DNA from: a virus
Lineage: Duplodnaviria; Caudoviricetes
DNA length: 56,571 bases
Reading direction: 5' to 3' (one strand)
IMG/VR virus record: IMGVR_UViG_3300042197_000691
Span: 1 to 56,571 of that record
Below are positions 6,971 through 55,918 of the stretch, piece after piece. A program made the position numbers and the translations under genes. Every line of letters starts with the position of its first letter. The stretch's first letter is position 1. The notes beneath the pieces are model-generated. The model made no database searches, was not told the DNA's origin, and saw only the letters and a list, made by a program, of their open reading frames with translations.

Positions 6971-7006
6971 ACCCCGATAACATAAATACCGTTATCGGGG
7001 TTATTT
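6971..7006 (+). terminator. intrinsic terminator-like hairpin with a late promoter motif in the loop
   Basis: ACCCCGATAAC-ATAAATACC-GTTATCGGGGT followed by TATTT. Confidence 0.65.
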
Positions 7007-37915: not shown

Positions 37916-39313
37916 ATGACCTTACCTTCAAAAACATTTTGTATTCTTCCTTGGATACATTTAAGTAGTCGCCCAGATGGAAAAATGAGAACTTGTTGTA
38001 CAAGCAATGCTAGTAGTGTTCAAAGTGCCGACAGTTCAATAAAAATAGGTGGTGGAGAAGTTGGTGTACTAAAAAATGACAATGGAGAAAGTGTTAATTT
38101 TAATACTACAAGATTAGAGGAAGCATGGAATAGTTCTTATATGCGTAATGTAAGAACAATGATGCTTAAAGGAGAAAAGCCAGCAAGTTGTTTAAAATGC
38201 TACAAAGAAGAAGAATCAGGACACTTAAGCAAAAGAAATTGGGAAACAGAATATTGGTCAAAAAGATATGATATATCTGAACTCATAAAAGAAACAGATG
38301 ATCAAGGTAATATTCCTACTAAAATAAGATACATTGATTTAAGACTTGGCAGTAAATGCCAATTAGCATGTGTAATGTGTAGTCCTCATGATAGTAGTAA
38401 CTGGATACCAGAATGGAATAAACTTTATCCTTTAATACAAAATAAAAATTTAAAACAAAGTTCTAGTTGGAATAATAAAGGGTTAAGTAATGGAAGCAGT
38501 TATAATTGGCATAAAAACAATCCTCAATTTTGGAAAGATTTATTTGATCAAATTCCAAATATGTATCAATTATATTTTGCTGGTGGGGAAAGTTTAATTA
38601 TTGATGAACATTATGATTTGTTGGAAGCATGTATTAAACTTGGATATGCAAAAAATATTGAACTTCGTTACAATTCAAATGCGGTAGAATGGAGAGACGA
38701 TTTATTTGATTTATGGTCAGAATTTAAAAGAGTAAGATTTCATTATAGCATTGATGCTTACGGAGAACAAAATGATTATATCAGATATCCAAGTAAGTGG
38801 AAACATCAAGAAGAAGTATTTTGGAAATTAGATAATACAACTGAAAATGTTGAAATTACGACCGCAACTACTCTTATAGCATTAAATATTGCTTATATAC
38901 CTGAATTTTTACAATGGAAAGTTTCACAAGGATTCAAGAAAATAAATAAATGGCCATTGGGCGCAGGTGGAATTAACATGCACTTTGCATATTGGCCACC
39001 CCAATTAAATGTTAAAGTTCTTCCGTCACATGTAAAACAAATAATTACTAAAAAATATGAAAATGAATTTTATCCTTGGATTGAAGAAAATTGGAATAAA
39101 TTTACGGGAGTATCGGAATCCGAAATAACTAAAGAAATGTTTTTAGATGCTGCTTATGGAATCAAAAGATTTAAGGGTATTATTAAATTTATGAATTCAG
39201 AAGATTGGAGTTCAAGACTTCCCGAAACTAAAGAATACATTCAATTATTAAATAATCAAAGAAATTGGAATGACAAATTTTTAAATGTTTTCCCGATTTT
39301 TAAATTCATATAA
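37916..39313 (+). CDS. radical SAM protein with N-terminal twitch domain
   Basis: CILPW...TCC...CLKC; CQLACVMC; AGGE; SIDA. Confidence 0.88.
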   Translation: MTLPSKTFCILPWIHLSSRPDGKMRTCCTSNASSVQSADSSIKIGGGEVGVLKNDNGESVNFNTTRLEEAWNSSYMRNVRTMMLKGEKPASCLKCYKEEESGHLSKRNWETEYWSKRYDISELIKETDDQGNIPTKIRYIDLRLGSKCQLACVMCSPHDSSNWIPEWNKLYPLIQNKNLKQSSSWNNKGLSNGSSYNWHKNNPQFWKDLFDQIPNMYQLYFAGGESLIIDEHYDLLEACIKLGYAKNIELRYNSNAVEWRDDLFDLWSEFKRVRFHYSIDAYGEQNDYIRYPSKWKHQEEVFWKLDNTTENVEITTATTLIALNIAYIPEFLQWKVSQGFKKINKWPLGAGGINMHFAYWPPQLNVKVLPSHVKQIITKKYENEFYPWIEENWNKFTGVSESEITKEMFLDAAYGIKRFKGIIKFMNSEDWSSRLPETKEYIQLLNNQRNWNDKFLNVFPIFKFI

Positions 39314-39403
39314 TATTATTATATATATTGACAATGTATTTTTAATAAATTTTAGCACACTGTCTACATTCAATAGAACACATCAAAATAATGGAATTAA
39401 AAT

Positions 39404-40645
39404 ATGAGTTTTTGCGCGATAAATGATAAAACAGAAAATCAACTAATGGTAATATGGGATTTAGGAAGAAAATGTACATATTCTTGCAGTTATTGTCCAC
39501 CTCATAGAAAAAACAATTGGAGTCCTGTAGCACAATTAGATGAACTAATAAAAACAGCAGATTCGTTAGACAGATATGCTAATATATATAACAAATATAG
39601 AAAAATACCATTTAAAACATCTTGTAGTTTTACGGGTGGAGAACCCACAGTAAATCCTGCGTTTTTTGAATTTTTAATTTATCTACAGCAACATTATCCT
39701 CATTGGAAAAGAACAATAACTACAAATGGATTTTATAGTGAACGTAAACTACGATTAGTTATGAATAACACACAGTTCACTACTTTAAGTTATCATTGCG
39801 AAGGAACTATAGAACAAAAAAAACGAGTTATAGAAAACATTCGTATTATGAACGAAGAAAAATACGGATTTAAAGTAAACGTAATGTTTCATGAAAACGA
39901 AAATTATTTTCGTGAATGCGTGGAACTCTGTGAATGGTTTAACGAATTAGGAATTAAATATACTCCAAGGATCATTGGTGATGAAGGTAATGTAAAACGA
40001 GGAATTCAAGATAAAACAGTGCATACGTATACAGAAGAACAGATGGATTGGTTTAAAAATTACTGGAATTTAAAAAATAAAAAAACTCTTTTTGGTTCGT
40101 CCGTGACGAAAAATATTGAGAGTACTTTCACAAAAGAGTCTTCTAAAAAAATTGTAGGTCAAAGTATTGGTCGCCCTTGTTGTGGTGGGCGTGATATGGA
40201 AATTCTTGAAAATAATGATTGGACTCCTACCAAATTTGTGACCAACAATAATTTTCAAGGTTGGAATTGTATGATTAATTGGTACTTTTTATATATTCAT
40301 CAAGAAATTAACAAAATTTGGCATCATCAAACATGTCAAGTAAATCTCGAAGGCAAAATTTCTCCTATTTCGACAGTGGATAAATTTGATAAATATTGTG
40401 ACTCTTTAGAAAATACTATTAACAACACGAGATCAATTCCTTACATCAGATGTCCAAAAACATATTGTGGTTGTGGACTATGTGCTCCTAAGGCAAAAAA
40501 TGATACAATTGCTGAACAACTTTTTAAAAGTCACACAATTGACTTAGAACCTAAATTTATAGAACAACAAAAAGAAACTTACAGCGGATCTTTAAAAGAT
40601 TTGGTATATGCTCATGATAAAGAAAATGGTAATGAGACAATCTAA
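39404..40645 (+). CDS. radical SAM protein
   Basis: CTYSCSYC; TGGEP; TTNG; Cys-rich C-terminus CPKTYCGCGLC. Confidence 0.88.
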   Translation: MSFCAINDKTENQLMVIWDLGRKCTYSCSYCPPHRKNNWSPVAQLDELIKTADSLDRYANIYNKYRKIPFKTSCSFTGGEPTVNPAFFEFLIYLQQHYPHWKRTITTNGFYSERKLRLVMNNTQFTTLSYHCEGTIEQKKRVIENIRIMNEEKYGFKVNVMFHENENYFRECVELCEWFNELGIKYTPRIIGDEGNVKRGIQDKTVHTYTEEQMDWFKNYWNLKNKKTLFGSSVTKNIESTFTKESSKKIVGQSIGRPCCGGRDMEILENNDWTPTKFVTNNNFQGWNCMINWYFLYIHQEINKIWHHQTCQVNLEGKISPISTVDKFDKYCDSLENTINNTRSIPYIRCPKTYCGCGLCAPKAKNDTIAEQLFKSHTIDLEPKFIEQQKETYSGSLKDLVYAHDKENGNETI

Positions 40646-40714
40646 AAAAGATTGAAATTTTTTGGTTGAATTTTTAATTAAATTAAAACAGCAAAAACTT
40701 ATAGATTTATAAAA

Positions 40715-41401
40715 ATGATATTTAAAACGGAAGATCAAGAAGTAAATTTTTCTATTCCAAAAAATTTTACAAAAATAGCAATAAATTGCAGTGGCGGAGC
40801 CGACAGCAGTATACTTTTGTATACTTTAGTAAAATATTTGGAAAAAAATGATAGAACAGATAATAAAATAACTGTTCTGACATGTGCTAACAATTTAAAA
40901 AATAGATGGAATGCTAGAAATGCAACAAGTGTAATTAATTTTGTAATTGAAAATACAAAAACTAATTATATAGATTCTCATATATGCTATTATCGAGATG
41001 TTCAAAAACCTGAATATTTTCACGAAATTGAATACGATTTGTTTAAAAATAAAAAGATTGATTTAATTGTTAGTGGAGTAACAGCAAATCCCCCTACTGG
41101 AGTTACACTATTAAACATAAATAATCAATTAATTAATTTATCTGACAAAGCATTGCCTAAAAGAAATGGCAGAGATAAAAATCCATGGTATAACAATAAT
41201 ATAGGATCTTGGTATTTTCCTTTTATAAACGTAGATAAAAAAATAATAGCAGAAATTTATCAATATTTTGGTCTTACTGATACATTATTATCTCTTACAC
41301 GAAGCTGCGAAGCAATAGAAAAAAATTTAAAAACATACGAACAGCCATGTGGAACTTGTTGGTGGTGTCTAGAGAGAAAATGGGCGTTTGGTAAATTTTA
41401 A
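40715..41401 (+). CDS. QueC-like PP-loop ATP pyrophosphatase
   Basis: SGGADS PP-loop; TRSC...PCGTCWWCLER zinc motif. Confidence 0.75.
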   Translation: MIFKTEDQEVNFSIPKNFTKIAINCSGGADSSILLYTLVKYLEKNDRTDNKITVLTCANNLKNRWNARNATSVINFVIENTKTNYIDSHICYYRDVQKPEYFHEIEYDLFKNKKIDLIVSGVTANPPTGVTLLNINNQLINLSDKALPKRNGRDKNPWYNNNIGSWYFPFINVDKKIIAEIYQYFGLTDTLLSLTRSCEAIEKNLKTYEQPCGTCWWCLERKWAFGKF

Positions 41402-41468
41402 CGTGATGCAGGACAATATAATATAGATTTAAAATTCTTTCTTCTCATAAATTATTTAAAAAATGTAA

Positions 41469-42032
41469 ATGAAAAAAATTCTTATTACGGGAAATAAAAA
41501 TTACGGCATTGCCAAAAGTTTATATGCTCTATATCCAGATGCTACATTTGCCAGTAGAGAAAGTGGTTTTGATTTGACAAACTCAGTAGGTCAGAACAAA
41601 TTAGCAGAAATTGCTATTGAACATGATGTGTTTATTAATTGTAGTGCTCTGTGGAAATTCAATCAAACAGTTTTATTGGATACGATATATAAAAAGTGCA
41701 TAGAAAAAAATCATAGATTACATATTATATGTATAGGTAGTACCACTGATCGTGTAAAAAATGGTAAAGCATGGTTGTACAATGCTGAGAAGAAAGCATT
41801 ACGAGATTACTGTAATACATTAGCATTAGGAGGTGTGTGGGGTTCAGGTCCAAAAGTTACTTATATCAGTTTTGGCACGCTGGATAACAATCAACACAAG
41901 CATCCAGATAGAAGATGTATGAGTATTGATGACGCAGCGCAATATATAAAATGGATCATTGATCAACCGTCTACGATAAATATAAACGAAATTAGCATTG
42001 ATCCTATGCAATACAGTTATTGGCATGAGTAA
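41469..42032 (+). CDS. short-chain dehydrogenase/reductase-like protein
   Basis: ILITGNKNYGIA, DVFIN, IGS, YNAEK (YxxxK). Confidence 0.75.
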   Translation: MKKILITGNKNYGIAKSLYALYPDATFASRESGFDLTNSVGQNKLAEIAIEHDVFINCSALWKFNQTVLLDTIYKKCIEKNHRLHIICIGSTTDRVKNGKAWLYNAEKKALRDYCNTLALGGVWGSGPKVTYISFGTLDNNQHKHPDRRCMSIDDAAQYIKWIIDQPSTININEISIDPMQYSYWHE

Positions 42033-43140
42033 AGATTTGTCCTGGAGTGAATATGATTTCACTAAGATACCGTTCAAAGACATCGTAAGTTTTGGTCAAC
42101 GTAGTTTACTTTATCGGGATTTATTCACAGTCAGTTGGCTATTAGGTAGATATTGTAACTATCGTTGTAGTTACTGTTGGCCATATGCTCGCAGTGATAC
42201 AAAAGATCATAGGCCCACGGAGTTGTGTTTAACGACTATAGATGAAATCAAACGTCAAGCAAGAGATAATGGTTTTAACAGTTTTCACTTTAGTTTAAGT
42301 GGCGGTGAACCTACGTTTCATCCGGGATATTTAGACATTTTGAAATATCTGGCTGATGATGTTGGTAATACCAATTACACAAGTATACATATGACTAGTA
42401 ATTGTAGTAGGCCAATTAAGTGGTTTGAAACGTATGTAGATTATGCCAAAGCATTTCATAGAGCAAGCATTACAGCAAGTTTGCATACAGAACATGTAAA
42501 TACGCCGCAGAAAATGCAAGAGTTCGCTGATAAACTTATATTATGCCAAGAAAATGATATTCAAGTGACCATTAACATGGTCATGGTTCCAGAATGGTTT
42601 GATCGTGATTATGATAATGCCTTGTTTTTTCATAATCAAGGAATCAATGTTACCCTTAAACCCCAAAGTGATTCGACGGCCAGTAAAGTTGTGGATGGGT
42701 ATACTGACGAACAAATGAAGAGATTATGGAATGGTATGCCTCAAATGGGTTACACAGAAATTAAAAGAAAATGGTCTAATAGACCTATAAATAAATTTGA
42801 ATCGTTAACAAAGACTACCACTGACAGCAGTACAGTGCCATCTCATATGCAGGTAGAGTTCACTGATTCGTCTGGCAAGAAATGGTATATGGATCAAGCT
42901 GAAAGATTTAATGCATTTGGATTTAATAAGTTCAAAGGATGGTTATGTAACAGTGGATATCAGGGGATTATCATCAGAGAACCAGATGGTAGCATAAAAC
43001 GTAGTTATAGTTGTTGGGACAAGCCTCTGGGCAACATTGAAACTGGTTTCAAATTATTTACTAAACCTACTGTATGTATGACTGAAAGTTGTGTTAGTAG
43101 CGCCGATAGTAAAATACCAAAAAAAATTTATCAAAGTTAA
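42025..43140 (+). CDS. radical SAM protein
   Basis: CNYRCSYC; SGGEP; TSN; ASLH. Confidence 0.88.
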   Translation: MSKDLSWSEYDFTKIPFKDIVSFGQRSLLYRDLFTVSWLLGRYCNYRCSYCWPYARSDTKDHRPTELCLTTIDEIKRQARDNGFNSFHFSLSGGEPTFHPGYLDILKYLADDVGNTNYTSIHMTSNCSRPIKWFETYVDYAKAFHRASITASLHTEHVNTPQKMQEFADKLILCQENDIQVTINMVMVPEWFDRDYDNALFFHNQGINVTLKPQSDSTASKVVDGYTDEQMKRLWNGMPQMGYTEIKRKWSNRPINKFESLTKTTTDSSTVPSHMQVEFTDSSGKKWYMDQAERFNAFGFNKFKGWLCNSGYQGIIIREPDGSIKRSYSCWDKPLGNIETGFKLFTKPTVCMTESCVSSADSKIPKKIYQS

Positions 43141-43184
43141 AATACCAACATTAATATTTAATAGCATAAAAAGAGAATATAATT

Positions 43185-43640
43185 ATGATGTGTGTAAAAA
43201 ATCTTTGTATAAAAAATAATAATTTACCAATAATACCAAATGAACTTATAAGTTCTTTAGAAGAAATAGAAAAATTAAAAAATTGTTTCCCCGATAAAGA
43301 TTTTAATCATACTTATGCAAGTTATGAAGTTCCGAATGAATTGGATAAATTTTTACAAAATTTTTTTGATTATCCTATCGTAGTGCGGTATCAAGTTATT
43401 AAAAAAAAATTACCAATTCACATTGATGTCAATACGAAGGCTAAGTTTAATTATTTGATAAAATCAGGTGGTAATCAAGTAACAACTAGATGGTGGGATG
43501 ATGATAAAAATCCAACAAAGAAGTTACAAGAATGTGAAATGAAAGAGTTAGAATGGTACTATTTAAAAGTAGATGTGCCACATGACATTTCAGAAATTGA
43601 AAATACTAGAATTAGTATTACGATTAAGATAAATAATTGA
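43185..43640 (+). CDS. cupin/2OG-Fe(II) oxygenase-like protein
   Basis: PIHID...VPHDI...RISITI. Confidence 0.6.
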   Translation: MMCVKNLCIKNNNLPIIPNELISSLEEIEKLKNCFPDKDFNHTYASYEVPNELDKFLQNFFDYPIVVRYQVIKKKLPIHIDVNTKAKFNYLIKSGGNQVTTRWWDDDKNPTKKLQECEMKELEWYYLKVDVPHDISEIENTRISITIKINN

Positions 43641-43641
43641 T

Positions 43642-44379
43642 ATGATAAATATATCCAATAATCTAGAAAATTTAAAATTTAACTTTTTGAAGTATGGTCT
43701 AACTTATTTCGAAAATAGTGAATATTCTAATTTTCAGATATCTTCAGTTTTGGGAATTCCATTTAAATATCGCCCTGATAAAAGTCCATATTATTTTATG
43801 GATAACGAAGGTTATGAGTTAAGGATATCGAATGTTGAAGGAATTTTAGGTAATTCTGAAATTTATTGGCATCAGGATCATTCACATAAAAAAGGAACAT
43901 GGTATGGTGGAGTATTACGAGGAATTAAAAACTCACATTTAAGCTCAACTACATTTTGTGATTTGGAATTATTGTATAATGATTTAAGTGATTCTCAACG
44001 AAAAAAAGCAGAAACTGTGAAAATTAAACAAACGATTAATAAAAAATATGAAAATTTAGAACAATTTAGCAAAGAAGCATGTCATATGGACGCTATTGAT
44101 TATCGTTTAGCAAAAAAAACAGTAATGCGTAATATGATAGTTGTTCATCCTGTTAAAAAAACAAAAATGTTATTTTTATCGCCTGAATTTGCTGTTCTTG
44201 AAGAGCATGATTTATCATTTTTTGAAGAAATAATAAATTTAGCAGATAAAGAAAAGTATCATACTATATTTGATTGGAAAGATGGAAATATTTTAATTTT
44301 TGATAATATTAAGTTTATGCACAAACGAAATTCTTTTATAGGTAACAGAATATTAACAAGAACTTTATTTCAAATTTGA
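43642..44379 (+). CDS. TauD/TfdA-family dioxygenase
   Basis: WHQD, TTFCD, VHP, WKDGNILIFDN...HKR...RILTR. Confidence 0.85.
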   Translation: MINISNNLENLKFNFLKYGLTYFENSEYSNFQISSVLGIPFKYRPDKSPYYFMDNEGYELRISNVEGILGNSEIYWHQDHSHKKGTWYGGVLRGIKNSHLSSTTFCDLELLYNDLSDSQRKKAETVKIKQTINKKYENLEQFSKEACHMDAIDYRLAKKTVMRNMIVVHPVKKTKMLFLSPEFAVLEEHDLSFFEEIINLADKEKYHTIFDWKDGNILIFDNIKFMHKRNSFIGNRILTRTLFQI

Positions 44380-44948
44380 TTTATTTTGTTCATGTAATTT
44401 TCAAAACTAGTATTGACATTAATTATTAAATGAATTCTATCTTCTTCTCCATTGTTTTTTACACAATGTTCGTATGTAGTGTTTAATGCATAAAATTTTC
44501 CTACTTCAAATTTTCCAGGAACAATTTTGCCATCATGTTTATAAAAATAAAAACATTTAGTATTAGTAATAATAGGTAAATGAACCCTTGTGATGTTTTC
44601 ACAATTATAATCAATATGCCATGGTATTATAATACCTTTAAATAATTTACTAAATCTCACTTTACTAGTCCCGAAACCTAAAGAAACCTTATTGATTATT
44701 TCTAAAATAGAAGTCGGAATATTTTCTTTCAACACAAAATTATCGGCACCTAAGTTTGCACGGTCATTTCCTAAATCATCAATTACATCAAAATCTGGAG
44801 ATTTTGAATTTTTCATATAACTTAGTCCTGCTGATTTATAAATTTTTTCATGATTTTCATGTTTACAAAAATATGGCAAATTTAAAGAATATTCTAAAAT
44901 TTCTTTTAAATCATGAGATGAAACAAAAAAAGGTAATTTTTTATACAT
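44370..44948 (-). CDS. aspartyl/asparaginyl beta-hydroxylase-like oxygenase
   Basis: WHID, RVHLPIITN, EHCVKNNGEEDRIHLII. Confidence 0.75.
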   Translation of the reverse strand: MYKKLPFFVSSHDLKEILEYSLNLPYFCKHENHEKIYKSAGLSYMKNSKSPDFDVIDDLGNDRANLGADNFVLKENIPTSILEIINKVSLGFGTSKVRFSKLFKGIIIPWHIDYNCENITRVHLPIITNTKCFYFYKHDGKIVPGKFEVGKFYALNTTYEHCVKNNGEEDRIHLIINVNTSFENYMNKINQI

Positions 44949-44950
44949 TT

Positions 44951-45553
44951 TTATTCTCTGTATAAATTATCTAACAATGAAAATTTATTATTGTTTCCTA
45001 TTTTAGAGTAACAAATATATTGAAATGAATTATCCATATTGCTAGGAGCAACTTGATATCTTTTATCTGTAGTTAACCAAACATATTTATTGCATAAAAA
45101 TGAAAAATTTAAATAATCTTTCATGCTGTTTAACTTGTAAATGGCATTTTTCCCTTCCCTAGTCATAAAAACAAAATCAATATTTTGTTTTAGACATTCT
45201 TCTATTTGCCTGGATACTATAATACCGGTTTCTGGCTTTAAGTATCTTCTCCCGTGTGATATTTGTCTCTCTCCGTTATCATCATATAAATTTGTGAATC
45301 GATTGAGTATTCTTGCATTATTTCCATAAAAAGACCGTTTCCAAACGCTGGTAAATGACATTAATTTTTCATTTCTATATAAAAAATTATAAGCGATTAC
45401 ATTATCAGTAAGCATTTCAAATGAATAAGCATGTTCTCTTTCGGGAGCAAATTTTTTAATCCATTCAATTACGAAATTGATGTTATCAACAACAGTATTA
45501 TTTAATTCTACATGTGTTTCTATTTTTATATCATTAAATATATCAGTTTTCAT
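44951..45553 (-). CDS. hypothetical protein (possibly GNAT-like)
   Basis: 200-aa ORF within the operon; ARILNRF and VFMTRE motifs. Fold call is weak. Confidence 0.55.
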   Translation of the reverse strand: MKTDIFNDIKIETHVELNNTVVDNINFVIEWIKKFAPEREHAYSFEMLTDNVIAYNFLYRNEKLMSFTSVWKRSFYGNNARILNRFTNLYDDNGERQISHGRRYLKPETGIIVSRQIEECLKQNIDFVFMTREGKNAIYKLNSMKDYLNFSFLCNKYVWLTTDKRYQVAPSNMDNSFQYICYSKIGNNNKFSLLDNLYRE

Positions 45554-46100
45554 AAGTTGAAATTATTAAAGAATAACGGTCTTCACTCCCGGCATTTACC
45601 GCTGTATGCCAAATTTTTGTGTTAGTGAAATATATATATCCATCTGATGGAATGTGAAAATTTAATAGATTGTTATTATTTTTATCCAAAAATGTCATAA
45701 ATGCAAATGAATTGGTTTTCATTGCTAAATGCCATCTAATGGTATAATCTTTATGAAAAAGTAAAGATGTTCCGGGTTTCATTTTTCTTATGGTCATTCT
45801 ACAAATATTGTATTCACTGTAATTTTTTAAACTTTCCCAAATCTCTTCCCAAATAGTATTCTTAAAATTATTATTTAAATTTGTGAATTTTTTTTCTTCT
45901 CTGACGGTTGTTCTAGACAGTTTATTTTTTGCTTTTATATTATACAATCCATCTTCTAAATTTTCACCACATAAAGATAATTGATTGTAATTTTCTAATA
46001 TTTTGCTCATGCCTTTATGTTCTAATATTAATTCTAGCCCCGCGATTATTTCGTTTATATCAAAATATAAGTTAGTTTTTTTAATAAAGTCGTTATTCAT
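45543..46100 (-). CDS. aspartyl/asparaginyl beta-hydroxylase-like oxygenase
   Basis: FHKD, RWHL, WHTAVNAGSEDR. Confidence 0.75.
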   Translation of the reverse strand: MNNDFIKKTNLYFDINEIIAGLELILEHKGMSKILENYNQLSLCGENLEDGLYNIKAKNKLSRTTVREEKKFTNLNNNFKNTIWEEIWESLKNYSEYNICRMTIRKMKPGTSLLFHKDYTIRWHLAMKTNSFAFMTFLDKNNNNLLNFHIPSDGYIYFTNTKIWHTAVNAGSEDRYSLIISTYEN

Positions 46101-47581
46101 GTTATATTAAAATTTTTAAAGTAGATTTTTATTTGTTCAATAGATTTATTTTTTACTAAAGACCAATCTATTATCCTTTGATGTTTTGTTACTAAATCAT
46201 CAATGGTATATATACCGGAAGTTATCAATGGAGCAAAATAGTGAAATGGGTTTACGCTATATAATTCTTGTTTTGGATCATCGTAACTGAATATTTCGTC
46301 AGTAAAATTTTTAGCCCGTTCAAAATTCCATCCAGTTTCTGCGTGAATCCAGTTCCCTTGTTTATCAAAAGTAAATCCATATTTAGTTGAATCTCGGTCA
46401 AACTCGCTCGTAGAAAATCGTTGATTGCTGAGTTTATGCCTAATAGCTAGAGGAACAAACGCCCAACTTGGAATTCCTATATCTTTTACAAATTGTTTAG
46501 ATTGAAGTATATCGTTTTCAGTTTCATATGGCAATCCTACTATAAAATTGGTATGAATTGTTATTTTTTTATTCCAACGATTTGAAAGTTTTTCTAAGAA
46601 TAATTTAGATTCCGGATTTGCATTAAATCCTTTTCCTATCAGTAAAGAATTTTTTTTATTAAAAGTTTCTATTCCTAAAAAAGCAGAGCGTATTGAGCAT
46701 CTTTCAATTAATTCTATAGTTTCTGGAAATCTAGCCAACAAATCATATCTTATATATGCTCCGAAACTTGGCTTAAATGGCAAACTTTCTACCATATCTG
46801 CAAATTCCCTCATTTTGTCGATGTTTTCATTAAAGGTACTGTCAATTAAAGAATAATATGTTGTTTTGTATTTTTCATAATGATAAATTAATTGATTTCT
46901 AATTAACTTCATGTCTCTAATGTAATCATTTTTCTTTTTTCCTAAATATTGAAAATCACAAAATTTACATTTAAACATACATCCTCTACTTGCTTCTAAT
47001 ATCATGGATTCCCCTGAAAATATGTAATCATTTTCAGCATGACGAAAATCATAATTTAAAATATGAAATTTATTGTAGGATGAATTTTTATAAATTTTAA
47101 TTTTATACGGAAGTTCTAATTCGTAAGGTGGTTCCCTACAATTTCCGTTGAAATAATCTAATAACTCTAATATTATGTTTTCCGCATATCCTTGAATATA
47201 TCCATCTAAAAATTCTAAATATGGTTTAACTTTAAAAAAAGAAATAGCACCACCTGCTAATATTTTTACATGAGGATAAGTTGTCTTTATGAATAAAAGA
47301 ACTTCATTTAAAGATTTGGTATCAGGATTATTCCAAAAAGTTAAGCTCAATCCAACAATTTTAGTTTTTTCATTTATTAATTGTTTAAGAATATTTTTTA
47401 TATTTTCTGATGAAACGTCATATTCTTTGGTACTGACAGTACTTAAAAAATCAATAACTTGACAGGAATAATTATTTTTTCTTAGTATATCGGCTAGCAG
47501 ATAACTACCAAAAGGTCTATCTATTTTGATTCTATTTTTTGAAATTTTAGATTGGTTTGTTGTTAAAAATATTACATCCAT
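46097..47581 (-). CDS. cobalamin-binding-type (class B-like) radical SAM protein
   Basis: N-terminal VGLS...GG domain; EASRGCMFKCKFC; DSTFN; LGIET; FIVGLPYET. Confidence 0.8.
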   Translation of the reverse strand: MDVIFLTTNQSKISKNRIKIDRPFGSYLLADILRKNNYSCQVIDFLSTVSTKEYDVSSENIKNILKQLINEKTKIVGLSLTFWNNPDTKSLNEVLLFIKTTYPHVKILAGGAISFFKVKPYLEFLDGYIQGYAENIILELLDYFNGNCREPPYELELPYKIKIYKNSSYNKFHILNYDFRHAENDYIFSGESMILEASRGCMFKCKFCDFQYLGKKKNDYIRDMKLIRNQLIYHYEKYKTTYYSLIDSTFNENIDKMREFADMVESLPFKPSFGAYIRYDLLARFPETIELIERCSIRSAFLGIETFNKKNSLLIGKGFNANPESKLFLEKLSNRWNKKITIHTNFIVGLPYETENDILQSKQFVKDIGIPSWAFVPLAIRHKLSNQRFSTSEFDRDSTKYGFTFDKQGNWIHAETGWNFERAKNFTDEIFSYDDPKQELYSVNPFHYFAPLITSGIYTIDDLVTKHQRIIDWSLVKNKSIEQIKIYFKNFNIT

Positions 47582-47605
47582 AATTTAGAAAATCATAATA
47601 AACTC

Positions 47606-48343
47606 TTAATCTTTTCTTATCAACTCTATGAAATCTGCTGATAAATCAAAAGAAGAATATCTAAAATTACTGGGGAAGGCATGATGATTATTATGAAATC
47701 CTCCTCCAAATGTTAATAAATTCATTATGAAAACATTTTTAGAATTATCATTGGTTTGATGTGTTTTTTCTCCGAAATGTTCATTATGTAAAATGTAATT
47801 GCCAATAATACTCATTATTGATGTTATTAATGTTCCACCTATTAAAAGCCCAAATGCTAATTCATATGAAATTAGTGATAAAAATGCATAACTTGACCAA
47901 TATAATACATAATAATATTTGTGAATAAACATTAGATAGTTATCTCGGCATAAATCTCGTGGATATGTAATATTATAAATTTTTTTTGTTTTAATTATTT
48001 GCCATTTCAATGTAGATTCCCATATTCCATTTTTGGGTGAATGCAAATCATTATCGGTATCTGAATATTTGTGGTGATGTCTATGTAATGCTACCCAAAA
48101 TAGAGGAGAACCATGACCGGACAATGTTCCCAAATAAATTATTAAAAAATTAAAAAATTTATTTAATTTGAACGATTTGTGTGATAGATAACGATGATAT
48201 CCTATCATATTACCAATAACTCCTATTACTATATATCCTATTATGACATATAGTAAAAACCAAATTGATAATGTAACAGTACAAAATGTTATAGCAATTA
48301 ATAGTATTAAAGGAAACAATAATTTTAAAAAATGAGAAGTCAT
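47606..48343 (-). CDS. membrane fatty acid (delta-9-type) desaturase
   Basis: His boxes YHRYLSH, HRHHH...HSP, HNNHH; hydrophobic helices. Confidence 0.9.
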   Translation of the reverse strand: MTSHFLKLLFPLILLIAITFCTVTLSIWFLLYVIIGYIVIGVIGNMIGYHRYLSHKSFKLNKFFNFLIIYLGTLSGHGSPLFWVALHRHHHKYSDTDNDLHSPKNGIWESTLKWQIIKTKKIYNITYPRDLCRDNYLMFIHKYYYVLYWSSYAFLSLISYELAFGLLIGGTLITSIMSIIGNYILHNEHFGEKTHQTNDNSKNVFIMNLLTFGGGFHNNHHAFPSNFRYSSFDLSADFIELIRKD

Positions 48344-48349
48344 AATACT

Positions 48350-49060
48350 TTACCTATTCTTAAATATATGAATTATCAATCCTCCAACATCACCGCTTCC
48401 AAATTTATAGTTTTTAGGATCATTATGATGATTTTTATGATACCCCTCGCCCCAAACTAAGTATGAAAGCAATCTATCATTGAACACTGTTCCCTTTCGA
48501 TGACTTATACTTACTATTGAACTTCCTGCGTTCCACAAAATCGCAGCAGGCGCTAACCATGCATATATTAAAGCATTAACATCTTGAAATATTAAAATCA
48601 TTAATATTCCCCATAGTAATGAAATTTCAAAATAAAATTTGTGTTGTAACAAATAAAACTTTTCTTTTAATAAATCTGGTACATATCTTAAATTAACTTC
48701 ACTAAACATACTTAAAAAGTGACAATAAAACCAAGATTTATACAATGGGCTATGCGGATCTTTCTCAGTATCAGTAAATCTATGATGTTGTCGATGAATA
48801 CTTACCCAACTAATTGCACTACCAGTCAGTCCTGAATTTGCAAAAATTACAAATAAGTATTCCAAGAACTTAGATGTAGACCATGATTTATGACTTAGTA
48901 GCCTATGATAAGTCATAGTCATTCCTAAACACCCGTTTAAAAAATAAACAAATATTGTTACTAGCCACCAATAAATATTACCGTAAAATAACATATATAT
49001 TAGAGCAGAGTGAGCAATAATTTGCGAAATTAGTAAATTTAATGGTGTTAGTGGTATCAT
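48350..49060 (-). CDS. membrane fatty acid (delta-9-type) desaturase
   Basis: His boxes YHRLLSH, HRQHH...DPHSP, GEGYHKNHH. Confidence 0.9.
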   Translation of the reverse strand: MIPLTPLNLLISQIIAHSALIYMLFYGNIYWWLVTIFVYFLNGCLGMTMTYHRLLSHKSWSTSKFLEYLFVIFANSGLTGSAISWVSIHRQHHRFTDTEKDPHSPLYKSWFYCHFLSMFSEVNLRYVPDLLKEKFYLLQHKFYFEISLLWGILMILIFQDVNALIYAWLAPAAILWNAGSSIVSISHRKGTVFNDRLLSYLVWGEGYHKNHHNDPKNYKFGSGDVGGLIIHIFKNR

Positions 49061-49101
49061 AATAAATATTTATCTACATTTTTTGATTGATCTAAAATTA
49101 T

Positions 49102-49458
49102 ATGCTAACGATAACGAACAATGCTGTACAAAAAATATCTGATATTCTTGTTGAAGAATCGCCAAATACAAAATTACGAATCTTCGTTCAAGGCGGAGGG
49201 TGTAGTGGATTCAACTATGGATTCACCACAGATACAGAAATAAATGAAGATGACTTCATCATAGAAAACACAAATGATACAGTAGTTACAGACAGTATGA
49301 GTATGCAATACCTAGCAGGTGCAACCGTTGATTATGTGGAAGATTTAATGGGTAGTAGTTTTAAAATAGATAACCCAAATGCTGAAACAACGTGTGGCTG
49401 TGGTAGTAGTTTCAACGTTGGAGAAGATTTTTACGATCAAGATTTTGATTTTCATTAA
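49102..49458 (+). CDS. erpA: A-type Fe-S carrier protein (ErpA/IscA, HesB family)
   Basis: [31 protein letters not shown]. Confidence 0.9.
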
Positions 49459-49506
49459 AAACATAGCATAAATACCACTATTATTAAGTACATACTAAAT
49501 ACTAAT

Positions 49507-49647
49507 ATGAAAAACTGTCCTAGACATCATTCACCATCAATACTTAGCAAATGGGAATCCCAGTGTGCTGAGATGGTGGCGCCCACATATTTTATTAGTT
49601 TACGTGACGGCGCCATCTCTAATATGAGAGAACCGTGTCGGGGGTAG
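49507..49647 (+). CDS. putative attenuator leader peptide (46 aa)
   Basis: MKNCPRHHSPSILSKWESQCAEMVAPTYFISLRDGAISNMREPCRG*. ATG lies 5 nt after TAAATA, as in four other late genes; the stop overlaps the antiterminator segment. Confidence 0.6.
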   Translation: MKNCPRHHSPSILSKWESQCAEMVAPTYFISLRDGAISNMREPCRG

Positions 49648-49682
49648 ATGAAACAAATAATATAATAAAATTGTAAAGTACC

Positions 49683-49716
49683 AAACCCCCGAAACCTAAA
49701 AAGTCTCGGGGGTTTT
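49683..49716 (+). terminator. intrinsic terminator with a competing upstream antiterminator (49638-49645)
   Basis: AAACCCCCGA...TCGGGGGTTTT; an identical TCGGGGGT occurs at 49638. Confidence 0.7.
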
Positions 49717-49720
49717 AACT

Positions 49721-49904
49721 TTGTGCTAGTGGGAAACGTGGTCCTAGTAGAGCACATAAAATATACTACAAAAAGGGCGGACTGCTGGATGAAAGTGTGG
49801 CGATAACACATAAGTACAAATAGCAGGTCAGGGTACAGCCCTGACATATCCAGAAACATTCTGGATATTCCAAAGTACATAGCAAAATGTGTATTTTGGA
49901 ATAT
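49721..49904 (+). ncRNA. putative structured RNA downstream of the attenuator
   Basis: Successive hairpins TGTGCT...AGCACA, GTCAGGG-TACAG-CCCTGAC, ATATCCAGAA/TTCTGGATAT, and a 17-bp stem at 49865-49904. Confidence 0.4.
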
Positions 49905-49910
49905 AAAAGT

Positions 49911-49939
49911 TTGACGGAATCTCCATCACCGTTTATACT
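49911..49939 (+). promoter_or_regulatory. sigma70-type promoter
   Basis: TTGACG-N17-TATACT. Confidence 0.7.
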
Positions 49940-49962: not shown

Positions 49963-50145
49963 ATGAAGTCAACATCAAATTATAAAATGAGTAAGCCACT
50001 AAAAATGCGTCTAAGTTCAACGATGTATCCACGGGATTTGCTCCAAAAGTGGAAACGTGCTATGATTGATAGTGAATTGAGCGCAGAACAAGCAAGCAAG
50101 ACCGCAGCAAAGCGTGAAAAGAATAAAGATGTAGAATCCGAATAA
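49963..50145 (+). CDS. hypothetical protein
   Basis: AAGGA RBS; follows a promoter. Confidence 0.6.
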   Translation: MKSTSNYKMSKPLKMRLSSTMYPRDLLQKWKRAMIDSELSAEQASKTAAKREKNKDVESE

Positions 50146-50153
50146 AATACTAT

Positions 50154-50228
50154 GTCAGGATGGCCGAGTGATTTAGGCAATGGTCTGCAAAACCGTCTAG
50201 GTGAGTTTGATTCTCACTCCTGACTCCA
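50154..50228 (+). tRNA. tRNA-Cys(GCA)
   Basis: Cloverleaf; anticodon loop CTGCAAA; T discriminator plus CCA. Confidence 0.88.
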
Positions 50229-50234
50229 AATATT

Positions 50235-50327
50235 AGAAGGTTGACAGAGAGGCCTATTGTCGCACATTGGAAATGTGATGGTCTGATAGTATCAGGCACC
50301 GGGGTTCAAATCCCCGACCTTCTGCCA
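50235..50327 (+). tRNA. tRNA-Ser(GGA)
   Basis: Loop TTGGAAA; long variable arm; GGTTCAAATCC T-arm; GCCA end. Confidence 0.88.
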
Positions 50328-50792: not shown

Positions 50793-50871
50793 GCCCAGGT
50801 GATGGAATTTAGGTATACATACTGTGTTGAGAACGCAGGTTGTGCAGGTTCGAATCCTGTCCTGGGCACCA
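50793..50871 (+). tRNA. tRNA-Leu(GAG), short variable loop
   Basis: GCCCAGG/CCTGGGC acceptor; loop TTGAGAA; GGTTCGAATCC; ACCA. Confidence 0.85.
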
Positions 50872-53656: not shown

Positions 53657-53751
53657 TGACCCGTAGTGATGAAATGGTAGACATAGGCCCGTAGTGGGGC
53701 CGGTGGAAGTAGAAGCCACGTGCAGGTTCGAGTCCTGCCTACAATGGGTCA
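53657..53751 (+). ncRNA. Leu-type pseudo-tRNA
   Basis: Leu-like D-arm GATGAAATGGTAGACAT, long variable arm and canonical T-arm, but a 6-nt anticodon loop, bulged acceptor and no CCA. Confidence 0.55.
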
Positions 53752-55252: not shown

Positions 55253-55918
55253 ATGTTCTATTACTTGTATGAAATCAGAAATAATTTGAATAACAAAATC
55301 TACGTAGGAGTTCATAAAACAAATAATATGGATGATGGTTATATGGGCTCTGGAAAAATAATCCAGAATGCTATTAGAAAGCACGGAATTGAGAACTTTT
55401 CTAAAGTTATACTTGAGACTTTCGAAAATTCAAAAGATATGTACGAAAGAGAATCTCAAATAGTAAATGATCAATTCTTATTAAGAGAAGATGTATATAA
55501 TCTTAGAAGAGGAGGTCATGGAGGATTTGAGTATATAAATAAAAACGGTATTAGTGTATTAATTTCTGAACAAAGAGAAAGAAATCCATCATTGATACAA
55601 AAAGCATCTATATTGGGAAATGAAGTAAAGAAAAATAAAGCTAAAAATGATCCAGTATATGCTGATTATTTGACTTCTATACGTAAAAAAGCAACACAAA
55701 AGTCAAAAGAAAATAATCCAAATGGAACATTTTATGGCAAAAAACATACAGCAGAATATAAAAAGTTTATGTCGCTGATCATGGCTGAAAAGCAATCAGG
55801 CTTAAGAAATTCACAATTTGGCACAATGTGGATAACTGATGGCACTGAAAGTAAGAAAATCAGTAAAACTGATGCCATTCCCGATGGATGGAAAAAAGGT
55901 AGAATAATGAAAAAGTAG
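55253..55918 (+). CDS. GIY-YIG homing endonuclease (Seg-like) inside the tRNA cluster
   Basis: YLYEIRNNLNNKIYVGVH...YMGSG; FYGKKH; WITDG...GWKKGR. TATAAATA and AAGGAG upstream. Confidence 0.88.
   Translation: MFYYLYEIRNNLNNKIYVGVHKTNNMDDGYMGSGKIIQNAIRKHGIENFSKVILETFENSKDMYERESQIVNDQFLLREDVYNLRRGGHGGFEYINKNGISVLISEQRERNPSLIQKASILGNEVKKNKAKNDPVYADYLTSIRKKATQKSKENNPNGTFYGKKHTAEYKKFMSLIMAEKQSGLRNSQFGTMWITDGTESKKISKTDAIPDGWKKGRIMKK

Follow-up and report, generated by a model that had tools for sequence, protein, structure and literature searches.

A cassette of about 450 nt (about 49467-49905) in the genome of a freshwater phage combines a leader open reading frame (ORF), a spacer, an intrinsic terminator and a 190-nt structured RNA into a single unit. 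Its reading frame is conserved in the absence of amino-acid selection, its alternative pairings are conserved and balanced in energy, and its folds covary. The interpretation preferred here, which is tentative, is that this mobile cassette might function in cis as a ribosome-dependent transcription attenuator. Sequence comparison indicates that it holds two new conserved structured RNA domains of uncultured freshwater giant phages, one of which doubles as an open reading frame that appears to be selected for openness only.

The stretch of DNA that was analysed, called the window throughout, is a whole IMG/VR record of 56.6 kb with an estimated completeness of 13%. Its genes include those for a tail tube, a very long tail sheath and a large terminase, besides several auxiliary metabolic genes, and it is thus taken to be a fragment of a very large myovirus. 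The source of the phage is fresh water (the samples holding it are freshwater and lake samples). To the right of the cassette is a region crowded with tRNA genes. An auxiliary-gene cluster at 37916-49458 codes for an IscA-like Fe-S assembly protein, a B12-binding radical SAM protein, a SPASM radical SAM protein and, on the minus strand, two fatty-acid desaturase-like genes. The features of the cassette and of its immediate surroundings are as follows.

49102-49458: IscA-like gene (Pfam Fe-S_biosyn), left neighbour of the cassette
49468-49475, plus strand: promoter-like motif CATAAATA at the left edge of the cassette, conserved in relatives
49495-49502, plus strand: second promoter-like motif, CTAAATAC, 12 nt 5' of the ATG, including TAAATA
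49507-49647, plus strand: leader ORF, 46 sense codons and TAG
49515-49525, plus strand: 5' strand of the closing helix P1, codons 3-7 (RNAalifold columns 23-33, paired with 143-155)
49531-49609, plus strand: internal hairpins P2 and P3 (RNAalifold), with compensatory changes
49635-49647, plus strand: 3' strand of P1, containing segment D (TCGGGGGT, 49638-49645) and the stop codon; also the 5' strand of the predicted antiterminator
49648-49681, plus strand: AT-rich spacer of variable sequence and near-constant length
49683-49716, plus strand: predicted intrinsic terminator with arms E (ACCCCCGA, 49685-49692) and F (TCGGGGGT, 49706-49713), then UUUU
49718-49905, plus strand: structured RNA domain, about 190 nt long and with four or more helices, predicted to be reached by read-through
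49911-49939, plus strand: sigma-70-like promoter TTGACG-17-TATACT, 10 of 12 positions, conserved, right bound of the cassette
49963-50145, plus strand: conserved gene of a 60-aa protein, 5' of tRNA-Cys
50154-50228, plus strand: tRNA-Cys
50235-50327, plus strand: tRNA-Ser

The leader open reading frame

The cassette is present in six further distinct contigs. Two of these (L087 and L088) were found among viral contigs with a pattern based on the geometry of D, E and F, and the other four (L093, L094, L095 and L096) among metagenome contigs by anchoring on the neighbouring 60-aa gene. L093 and L095 are full-length; L094 and L096 are truncated at the contig ends. There are thus five full-length copies (window, L087, L088, L093 and L095). 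The copies form three clades, namely the window, L088/L095/L096 and L087/L093/L094, and all comparative statistics given here rest on these three clades, which are few and related lineages.

As had been described in an earlier note on this DNA, the box TAAATA (49496-49501) is followed, after 5 nt, by the ATG at 49507. The larger motif CTAAATAC is situated at -12 relative to the start and resembles ATAAATAC, located 5' of other genes of the window; another motif, CATAAATAC, is found at -39. Both upstream motifs are conserved, and ACTAAATAC is invariant in all five full copies. The sequence ATAAATA occurs 22 times on the plus strand and 9 times on the minus strand of the window. As ATAAATA(C) it is often found 12-26 nt ahead of plus-strand gene starts, with sites, for example, at 6982, 8809, 17309, 21181, 22752, 41976, 43629, 49468 and 55227. 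This motif resembles the T4-type late promoter TATAAATA. Judging by its motif, CTAAATAC is probably a promoter. Most genes of the window have no Shine-Dalgarno sequence, and neither has the leader ORF. Since the missing Shine-Dalgarno sequence and the ATAAATA-type motifs are typical of the genes of this phage, the start context of the leader is an ordinary one here. None of the folds pairs the first 22-25 nt or so of the RNA, which include the AUG.

The start, the stop and the frame of the ORF are kept in every relative that covers them, and its length is 46, 43, 43, 44 and 44 codons in the five full copies. Between the conserved ATGAAAAAC and the conserved CGGGGGTAG the frame has no stop codon in any of the five full copies; each of the five alternative frames there has 1-6 stops. 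The three clades are separated by about 70 substitutions across the tree, and 6-8% of the possible substitutions at variable sites create a stop. Upon shuffling of the variable positions the open frame survives in 5.6-6.8% of the trials per clade, and the product of the per-clade probabilities (0.056-0.068) is 2.5e-4. All three gap runs within the ORF (3, 6 and 3 nt) are multiples of three, and L094 has an additional in-frame insertion of TCG. Elsewhere in the cassette two of 13 gap runs are multiples of three, and 11 of the 13 are single bases. The probability that the frame has remained open by chance is estimated at roughly 1e-3 to 1e-4, by an arithmetic that runs over few, related lineages.

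The encoded peptide does not follow this pattern of conservation. The differences between copies are spread evenly over the codon positions (15/16/14, 22/19/20 and 12/14/11), the pN/pS ratio is 0.77-0.95, and the synonymous sites within the conserved nucleotide blocks are frozen too. Selection thus appears, from these comparisons, to act on the open frame and on the RNA sequence and not on the protein. An open frame that is kept while changes fall evenly on the codon positions is the signature expected of a regulatory leader ORF. No regulatory codon run is conserved; the sole tandem pair, CAT CAT, is found in the window only. The last two codons of the ORF, CGG and GGG, are rare in the window phage (0.5 and 3.1 per thousand). 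A Pfam search with the 46-aa product and the 60-aa product gave no matches. The idea of a type I toxin, which came from a match to the Rfam family ohsC, was ruled out, the peptide not being hydrophobic. A minus-strand ORF of 117 aa (49527-49880) had no Pfam match and was likewise ruled out, the reverse frames having 1-5 stops in the ORF region of all copies. Directly after the leader TAG, at 49648-49665 in the window, is a mini-ORF of 3-5 codons (ATG AAR CA. ...), the first 7-8 nt of which are conserved and echo the leader start ATGAAAAAC.

The earlier note had viewed the ORF as a codon sampler on account of its 46 codons, which include 37 distinct ones, all four Pro codons, all three Ile codons and five of the six Ser codons, and which specify all 20 amino acids. 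These counts are correct, as is the expectation of 32-33 distinct codons from a uniform draw of 46 (32.5 +/- 2.25). Under such a draw the probability of at least 37 distinct codons is 0.036, and that of all 20 amino acids 0.014; genes of the window have a mean of 26.8 +/- 2.7 distinct codons (278 windows of 46 codons), as against 37 in the leader. A fairer null, in which the variable positions are shuffled and open frames only are retained, gives probabilities for the amino acids and the distinct codons of 0.063 and 0.057 in the window, 0.22 and 0.19 in L088, and 0.27 and 0.39 in L087. In the relatives, the 43-44 codons include 31-33 distinct ones and specify 19 of the 20 amino acids. The diversity is therefore not above chance for an open frame of this base composition, and the design that had been read into it falls away. 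The codons of the leader are diverse because selection on codon usage and on amino acids is absent.

A different view of the same ORF is that of a small transcription unit of the "moron" type, whose RNA of about 215 nt would be a small RNA, a messenger for a fast-evolving micro-protein, or both; the terminator would then be leaky, and pairing between D and E would have no switching role. The promoter-like motifs together with a good terminator accord with this view, as do the movement of the cassette as a unit between different neighbours and the prediction of the peptide by gene callers in other assemblies (P0001, P0002 and P0003, found in protein searches). Dual-function small RNAs are a known case of a structured RNA that also carries an ORF. 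The pN/pS ratio and the even distribution of changes speak against a functional peptide, however, and such a unit leaves unexplained why 8 nt of the terminator arm recur, without variation, exactly at the stop codon, and why the downstream RNA, which lacks a conserved promoter, is always co-inherited. On balance the "moron" view is considered unlikely.

Fold of the ORF region and the competing helices

The fold of the ORF region was obtained by running RNAalifold on five sequences. Across the three clades 92% of the cells of this fold are paired, compared with 36-45% in slid controls, and seven pairs have changed on both sides. In the helices of P1, 100% and 87% of the cells are paired. P2 has a different sequence in each clade and retains its pairing through compensatory changes; P3 has the conserved sequence GGCGCCCRC...GYGGCG, a conserved loop and one exchange of A-U for G-C. 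At the end of the ORF, TTCGGGGGTAGATGAA is invariant although the codons that precede it vary. The segment 49490-49730 folds far better than its shuffles (z = -3.99). A loop-loop complementarity between the loop of P3 and the downstream RNA, noticed by eye, is inconsistent between clades and was rejected.

This four-helix fold is more elaborate than those of known leader-peptide attenuators, which counts against the attenuator reading. Folds with compensatory changes of this kind are typical of RNAs that bind a ligand or a factor. The region 49515-49647 could accordingly be a riboswitch-like leader that binds a small molecule, a protein or an RNA, whereupon P1 would be stabilised, D locked and the terminator formed, the open frame being secondary or serving another purpose. 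Such a leader would account for the multi-branched fold, the compensatory changes in variable stems, the invariant loop and junction nucleotides and the frozen synonymous positions, and the 3' strand of P1 is used a second time as the antiterminator strand, as is classic for the expression platform of a riboswitch. A riboswitch does not need the kept frame, though, which is improbable by chance. All Rfam families stay below half of their gathering scores here, no obvious regulated metabolic gene lies downstream, and the support for the fold, coming from three clades, is moderate. A low probability is thus assigned to the riboswitch-like leader.

The terminator is predicted from the sequence to have a stem of 10+2 bp with an energy of -17.4 kcal/mol, directly followed by the U-tract. 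It is not listed by a simple hairpin scan because its 13-nt loop is above the limit of that scan. The stem and the loop are 100% identical in all copies. The repeat that had been reported earlier is present: TCGGGGGT occurs at 49638-49645 and again at 49706-49713, and its complement ACCCCCGA at 49685-49692. D can therefore pair with E in competition with the terminator pairing E:F. The antiterminator D:E alone has an energy of -15.4 kcal/mol, compared with -17.4 kcal/mol for E:F. The antiterminator/terminator geometry proposed in the earlier note is conserved in relatives and balanced in energy. In all three clades the minimum-energy fold of a transcript that ends before F includes D:E. In the full transcript P1 and the terminator are favoured, and forcing D:E costs 1.3-6.7 kcal/mol. 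The terminator persists in the folding when a ribosome footprint at the stop codon is masked.

D, E and F are invariant in the relatives, and the distance between D and E is 44-47 nt in all copies. Because these segments never vary, they provide no proof of D:E by covariation (in helix 7, 12 of 12 pairs are invariant). The comparison with related phages that the earlier note had called for showed the ORF to be conserved, so that the note's refuting case of an unconserved ORF does not apply; it found an unremarkable codon diversity and gave no covariation of the antiterminator and the terminator. Among 102 terminator-like hairpins with perfect stems in the window and all loci, a repeat of the 3' arm 5-90 nt upstream is found only in the cassette family (8 copies) and in L089, which had itself been fetched with that pattern; about 93 unrelated hairpins have no upstream repeat of an arm. 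By this survey, the upstream repeat exceeds what chance would give.

In the attenuator reading, transcription would start at an ATAAATA-type phage promoter, and the first 25 nt or so of the RNA, being unpaired, would present the AUG of the 43-46 codon ORF. We infer that the leader is translated, and likewise the signal and the direction of the response. The peptide would have no function, and the position of the ribosome would be what counts. The last two codons and the stop (UCGGGGGUAG, with D) could pair with codons 3-7 to form P1, or D could instead pair with E, the 5' arm of the terminator about 40 nt downstream, to form the antiterminator. A ribosome at the rare codons CGG GGG and the stop would cover D, so that E:F would form and transcription would end at 49716. 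If the ribosome lagged or was absent, D would be free and would take E before F had been made. The RNA polymerase would then enter 49718-49905 and continue in the direction of the 60-aa gene and the tRNA genes. Besides the elaborate fold, several points count against this reading: the leader has no regulatory codon run, the U-tract comprises only 4-5 U, the terminator loop is more strictly kept than termination by itself needs, the 60-aa gene and the tRNAs have a conserved promoter of their own, and the close relative L092 does without the whole cassette.

The downstream RNA and the borders of the cassette

The earlier note had supposed read-through into the phage RNA genes. What read-through would enter first is the structured RNA at 49718-49905, and not tRNA genes. 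All cells of this domain (100%) are paired, whereas slid controls give 22-59%. It has four compensatory pairs and several G-U pairs that are sensible only on the plus strand. The domain and the leader co-occur wherever a contig covers both, and the aligned copies have no conserved promoter between the terminator and the domain. No Rfam family matches the downstream RNA. Over the region as a whole only tRNAs pass in Rfam. Matches to ohsC and His_leader are driven by the terminator and are far below threshold; His_leader (RF00514), whose gathering score is 49, reaches 19.1 bits in the window and 23.6-24.1 bits in L090.

The constant association of the two domains would also fit a single structured non-coding RNA covering some 430 nt (about 49480-49905). 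The frame would then be open by accident, and the "terminator" would be a hairpin within that RNA whose loop has a function. The invariance of this loop and the lack of a promoter between the domains agree with one long RNA. Large structured RNAs, GOLLD and ROOL, are known beside phage tRNA genes; no match to either was found with Rfam. A 189-nt contig assembled from an RNA library spans 49602-49790 and so bridges the hairpin. This contig is a weak hint of read-through RNA, DNA carry-over in the library being possible. The four sequencing runs compared with the window all consisted of assembled contigs, in which a stretch without cover carries no meaning. A frame held open against the odds, a hairpin with the complete anatomy of an intrinsic terminator and an AT-rich spacer of variable sequence between the domains all argue against one long RNA, which seems quite improbable.

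The earlier note had cautioned that sigma-70 promoters lie downstream, and a conserved sigma-70-like promoter is indeed situated at 49911-49939, ahead of the tRNA cluster. Since the 60-aa gene and the tRNAs have this promoter of their own, the tRNA genes do not depend on read-through, and the only dedicated target of the cassette is the structured RNA. In an extended form of the attenuator, the cassette would be a phage-borne sensor of translation capacity. Leader translation at normal speed would stop transcription at 49716, and crippled translation, for example upon cleavage or depletion of host tRNAs in defence, would lead to the antiterminator, to more of the structured RNA and to transcription into the tRNA cluster. 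If true, this would create a feedback loop between translation stress and the phage tRNA supply. The extended form is regarded as very doubtful.

The 60-aa gene differs from the leader ORF in that its pN/pS ratio, obtained by the same method, is 0.35-0.48 and its changes are enriched in third codon positions. It has 113 relatives in metagenome contigs, confirmed by tblastn. The protein is basic and contains the motifs YKMSK.LKMRL and WKRAMID, and its gene is directly 5' of tRNA genes in the window, L090, L091 and L093. Within the tRNA region of the window, the tRNA at 50793-50868 is found by Rfam and not by ARAGORN, and a tRNA that ARAGORN reports at 53660-53746, its type undetermined and its anticodon loop odd, is absent from the Rfam matches. 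A GIY-YIG (SegE-like) homing endonuclease gene, with TATAAATAC 5' of it, is located among the tRNA genes at 55253-55918. The tRNA clusters of relatives have weak matches of 37-39 bits to the tRNA-Sec model (gathering score 47) at L091 3094-3177, L093 891-974 and L090 2783-2866; these are probably tRNAs with a long variable arm.

Conservation of the cassette starts at about 49450-49467 and ends at about 49903. On the left, near-identical assembled contigs from other samples lose similarity left of 49450 and of 49467. On the right, L092 matches the window at 88% identity from 49903 onwards and lacks the cassette. The divergence at the border and the replacement in L092 show that the cassette is gained or lost as a unit, and its absence from such a close relative shows that it is dispensable. 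L092 has at the same site a different intergenic insert of about 200 nt (900-1095), which is richer in GC, has hairpin-like stretches and may be another RNA cassette.

A profile of the leader ORF peptide run against 1.84 billion cluster representatives found it nowhere outside the clade. When 80 viral loci were fetched by synteny with the IscA-like gene, the element was present in none of 85 loci by blastn, nhmmer or tblastn, and the 10 loci of this set that were examined for tRNAs had none. The 60-aa protein alone, used as an anchor in viral sequences, gave nothing; its alignment as a viral query recovered only L087 and L088, the same two that were returned by two more viral pattern scans. 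The hairpin pattern GATGGTGGCGCC...GGCGCCATC had five matches without further similarity, which were put down to chance. The terminator sequence had no match in prokaryote genomes, and the covariance models R1 and R2, run over 83 sources, detected no distant homologues.

Comparison with known systems

Ribosome-mediated attenuation is a textbook mechanism of amino-acid operons in bacteria, and some antibiotic-resistance genes are also known to use it. A literature search covering titles and the openings of abstracts returned no leader-peptide attenuator in a phage and none ahead of phage tRNA or RNA genes. If the attenuator model holds, the phage would read the state of the host translation machinery and adjust the output of its own non-coding RNA and tRNAs, and the cassette would be a compact natural part that reports translation speed.

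The likeness to trp- and his-type attenuators asserted in the earlier note is partial. As in the trp, his, leu, thr and pheA attenuators, the predicted structures follow the logic of 1:2, 2:3 and 3:4 pairing, with segment 2 masked by a ribosome at the stop codon and 3:4 being, in silico, an intrinsic terminator. The conservation of its frame also makes the ORF resemble the short leader ORF that is conserved ahead of the terminator in amino-acid attenuators. The cassette differs from them in having no run of codons for a single amino acid and no biosynthetic operon; its leader has 2-3 times their length and coincides with a fold of four helices. Since it lacks a regulatory codon run, a matching Rfam family and a biosynthetic operon downstream, the cassette does not belong to the trp/his family.

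Riboswitches with terminator platforms share with the cassette a covarying folded domain and a closing helix whose 3' strand competes for the 5' arm of the terminator. Unlike theirs, the domain of the cassette is an ORF that appears to be kept open by selection; it matches no class, and its neighbours do not suggest a ligand. The pyrBI leader of E. coli has an ORF of about 44 codons, close to the length found here. In pyrBI the distance between the ribosome and the polymerase decides on termination, and the ORF runs through the terminator, which is blocked directly, whereas the ORF of the cassette ends 38 nt before the terminator.

In its logic the closest known system is bmrB-bmrCD of Bacillus subtilis (PMC4191407). 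In that bacterial system, which has been shown experimentally, a leader of 53 aa senses slowed translation in general, its own translation and no particular amino acid being the proposed cue, and the target is an ABC transporter (PMC4191407). Both leaders are long (53 aa in bmrB and 43-46 codons here) and contain rare codons, and both have alternatives for a terminator, an antiterminator and an anti-antiterminator, which here would be E:F, D:E and P1 as predicted in silico (PMC4191407 for bmrB). Slowed translation favours the antiterminator in bmrB and is proposed to do so here. The structures of bmrB are situated within the coding region (nt 60-162), whereas the ORF of the cassette stops on the antiterminator strand and the terminator follows 38 nt on. 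The targets differ too, since the phage-borne cassette, as read from its sequence, would control a structured RNA and then tRNA genes.
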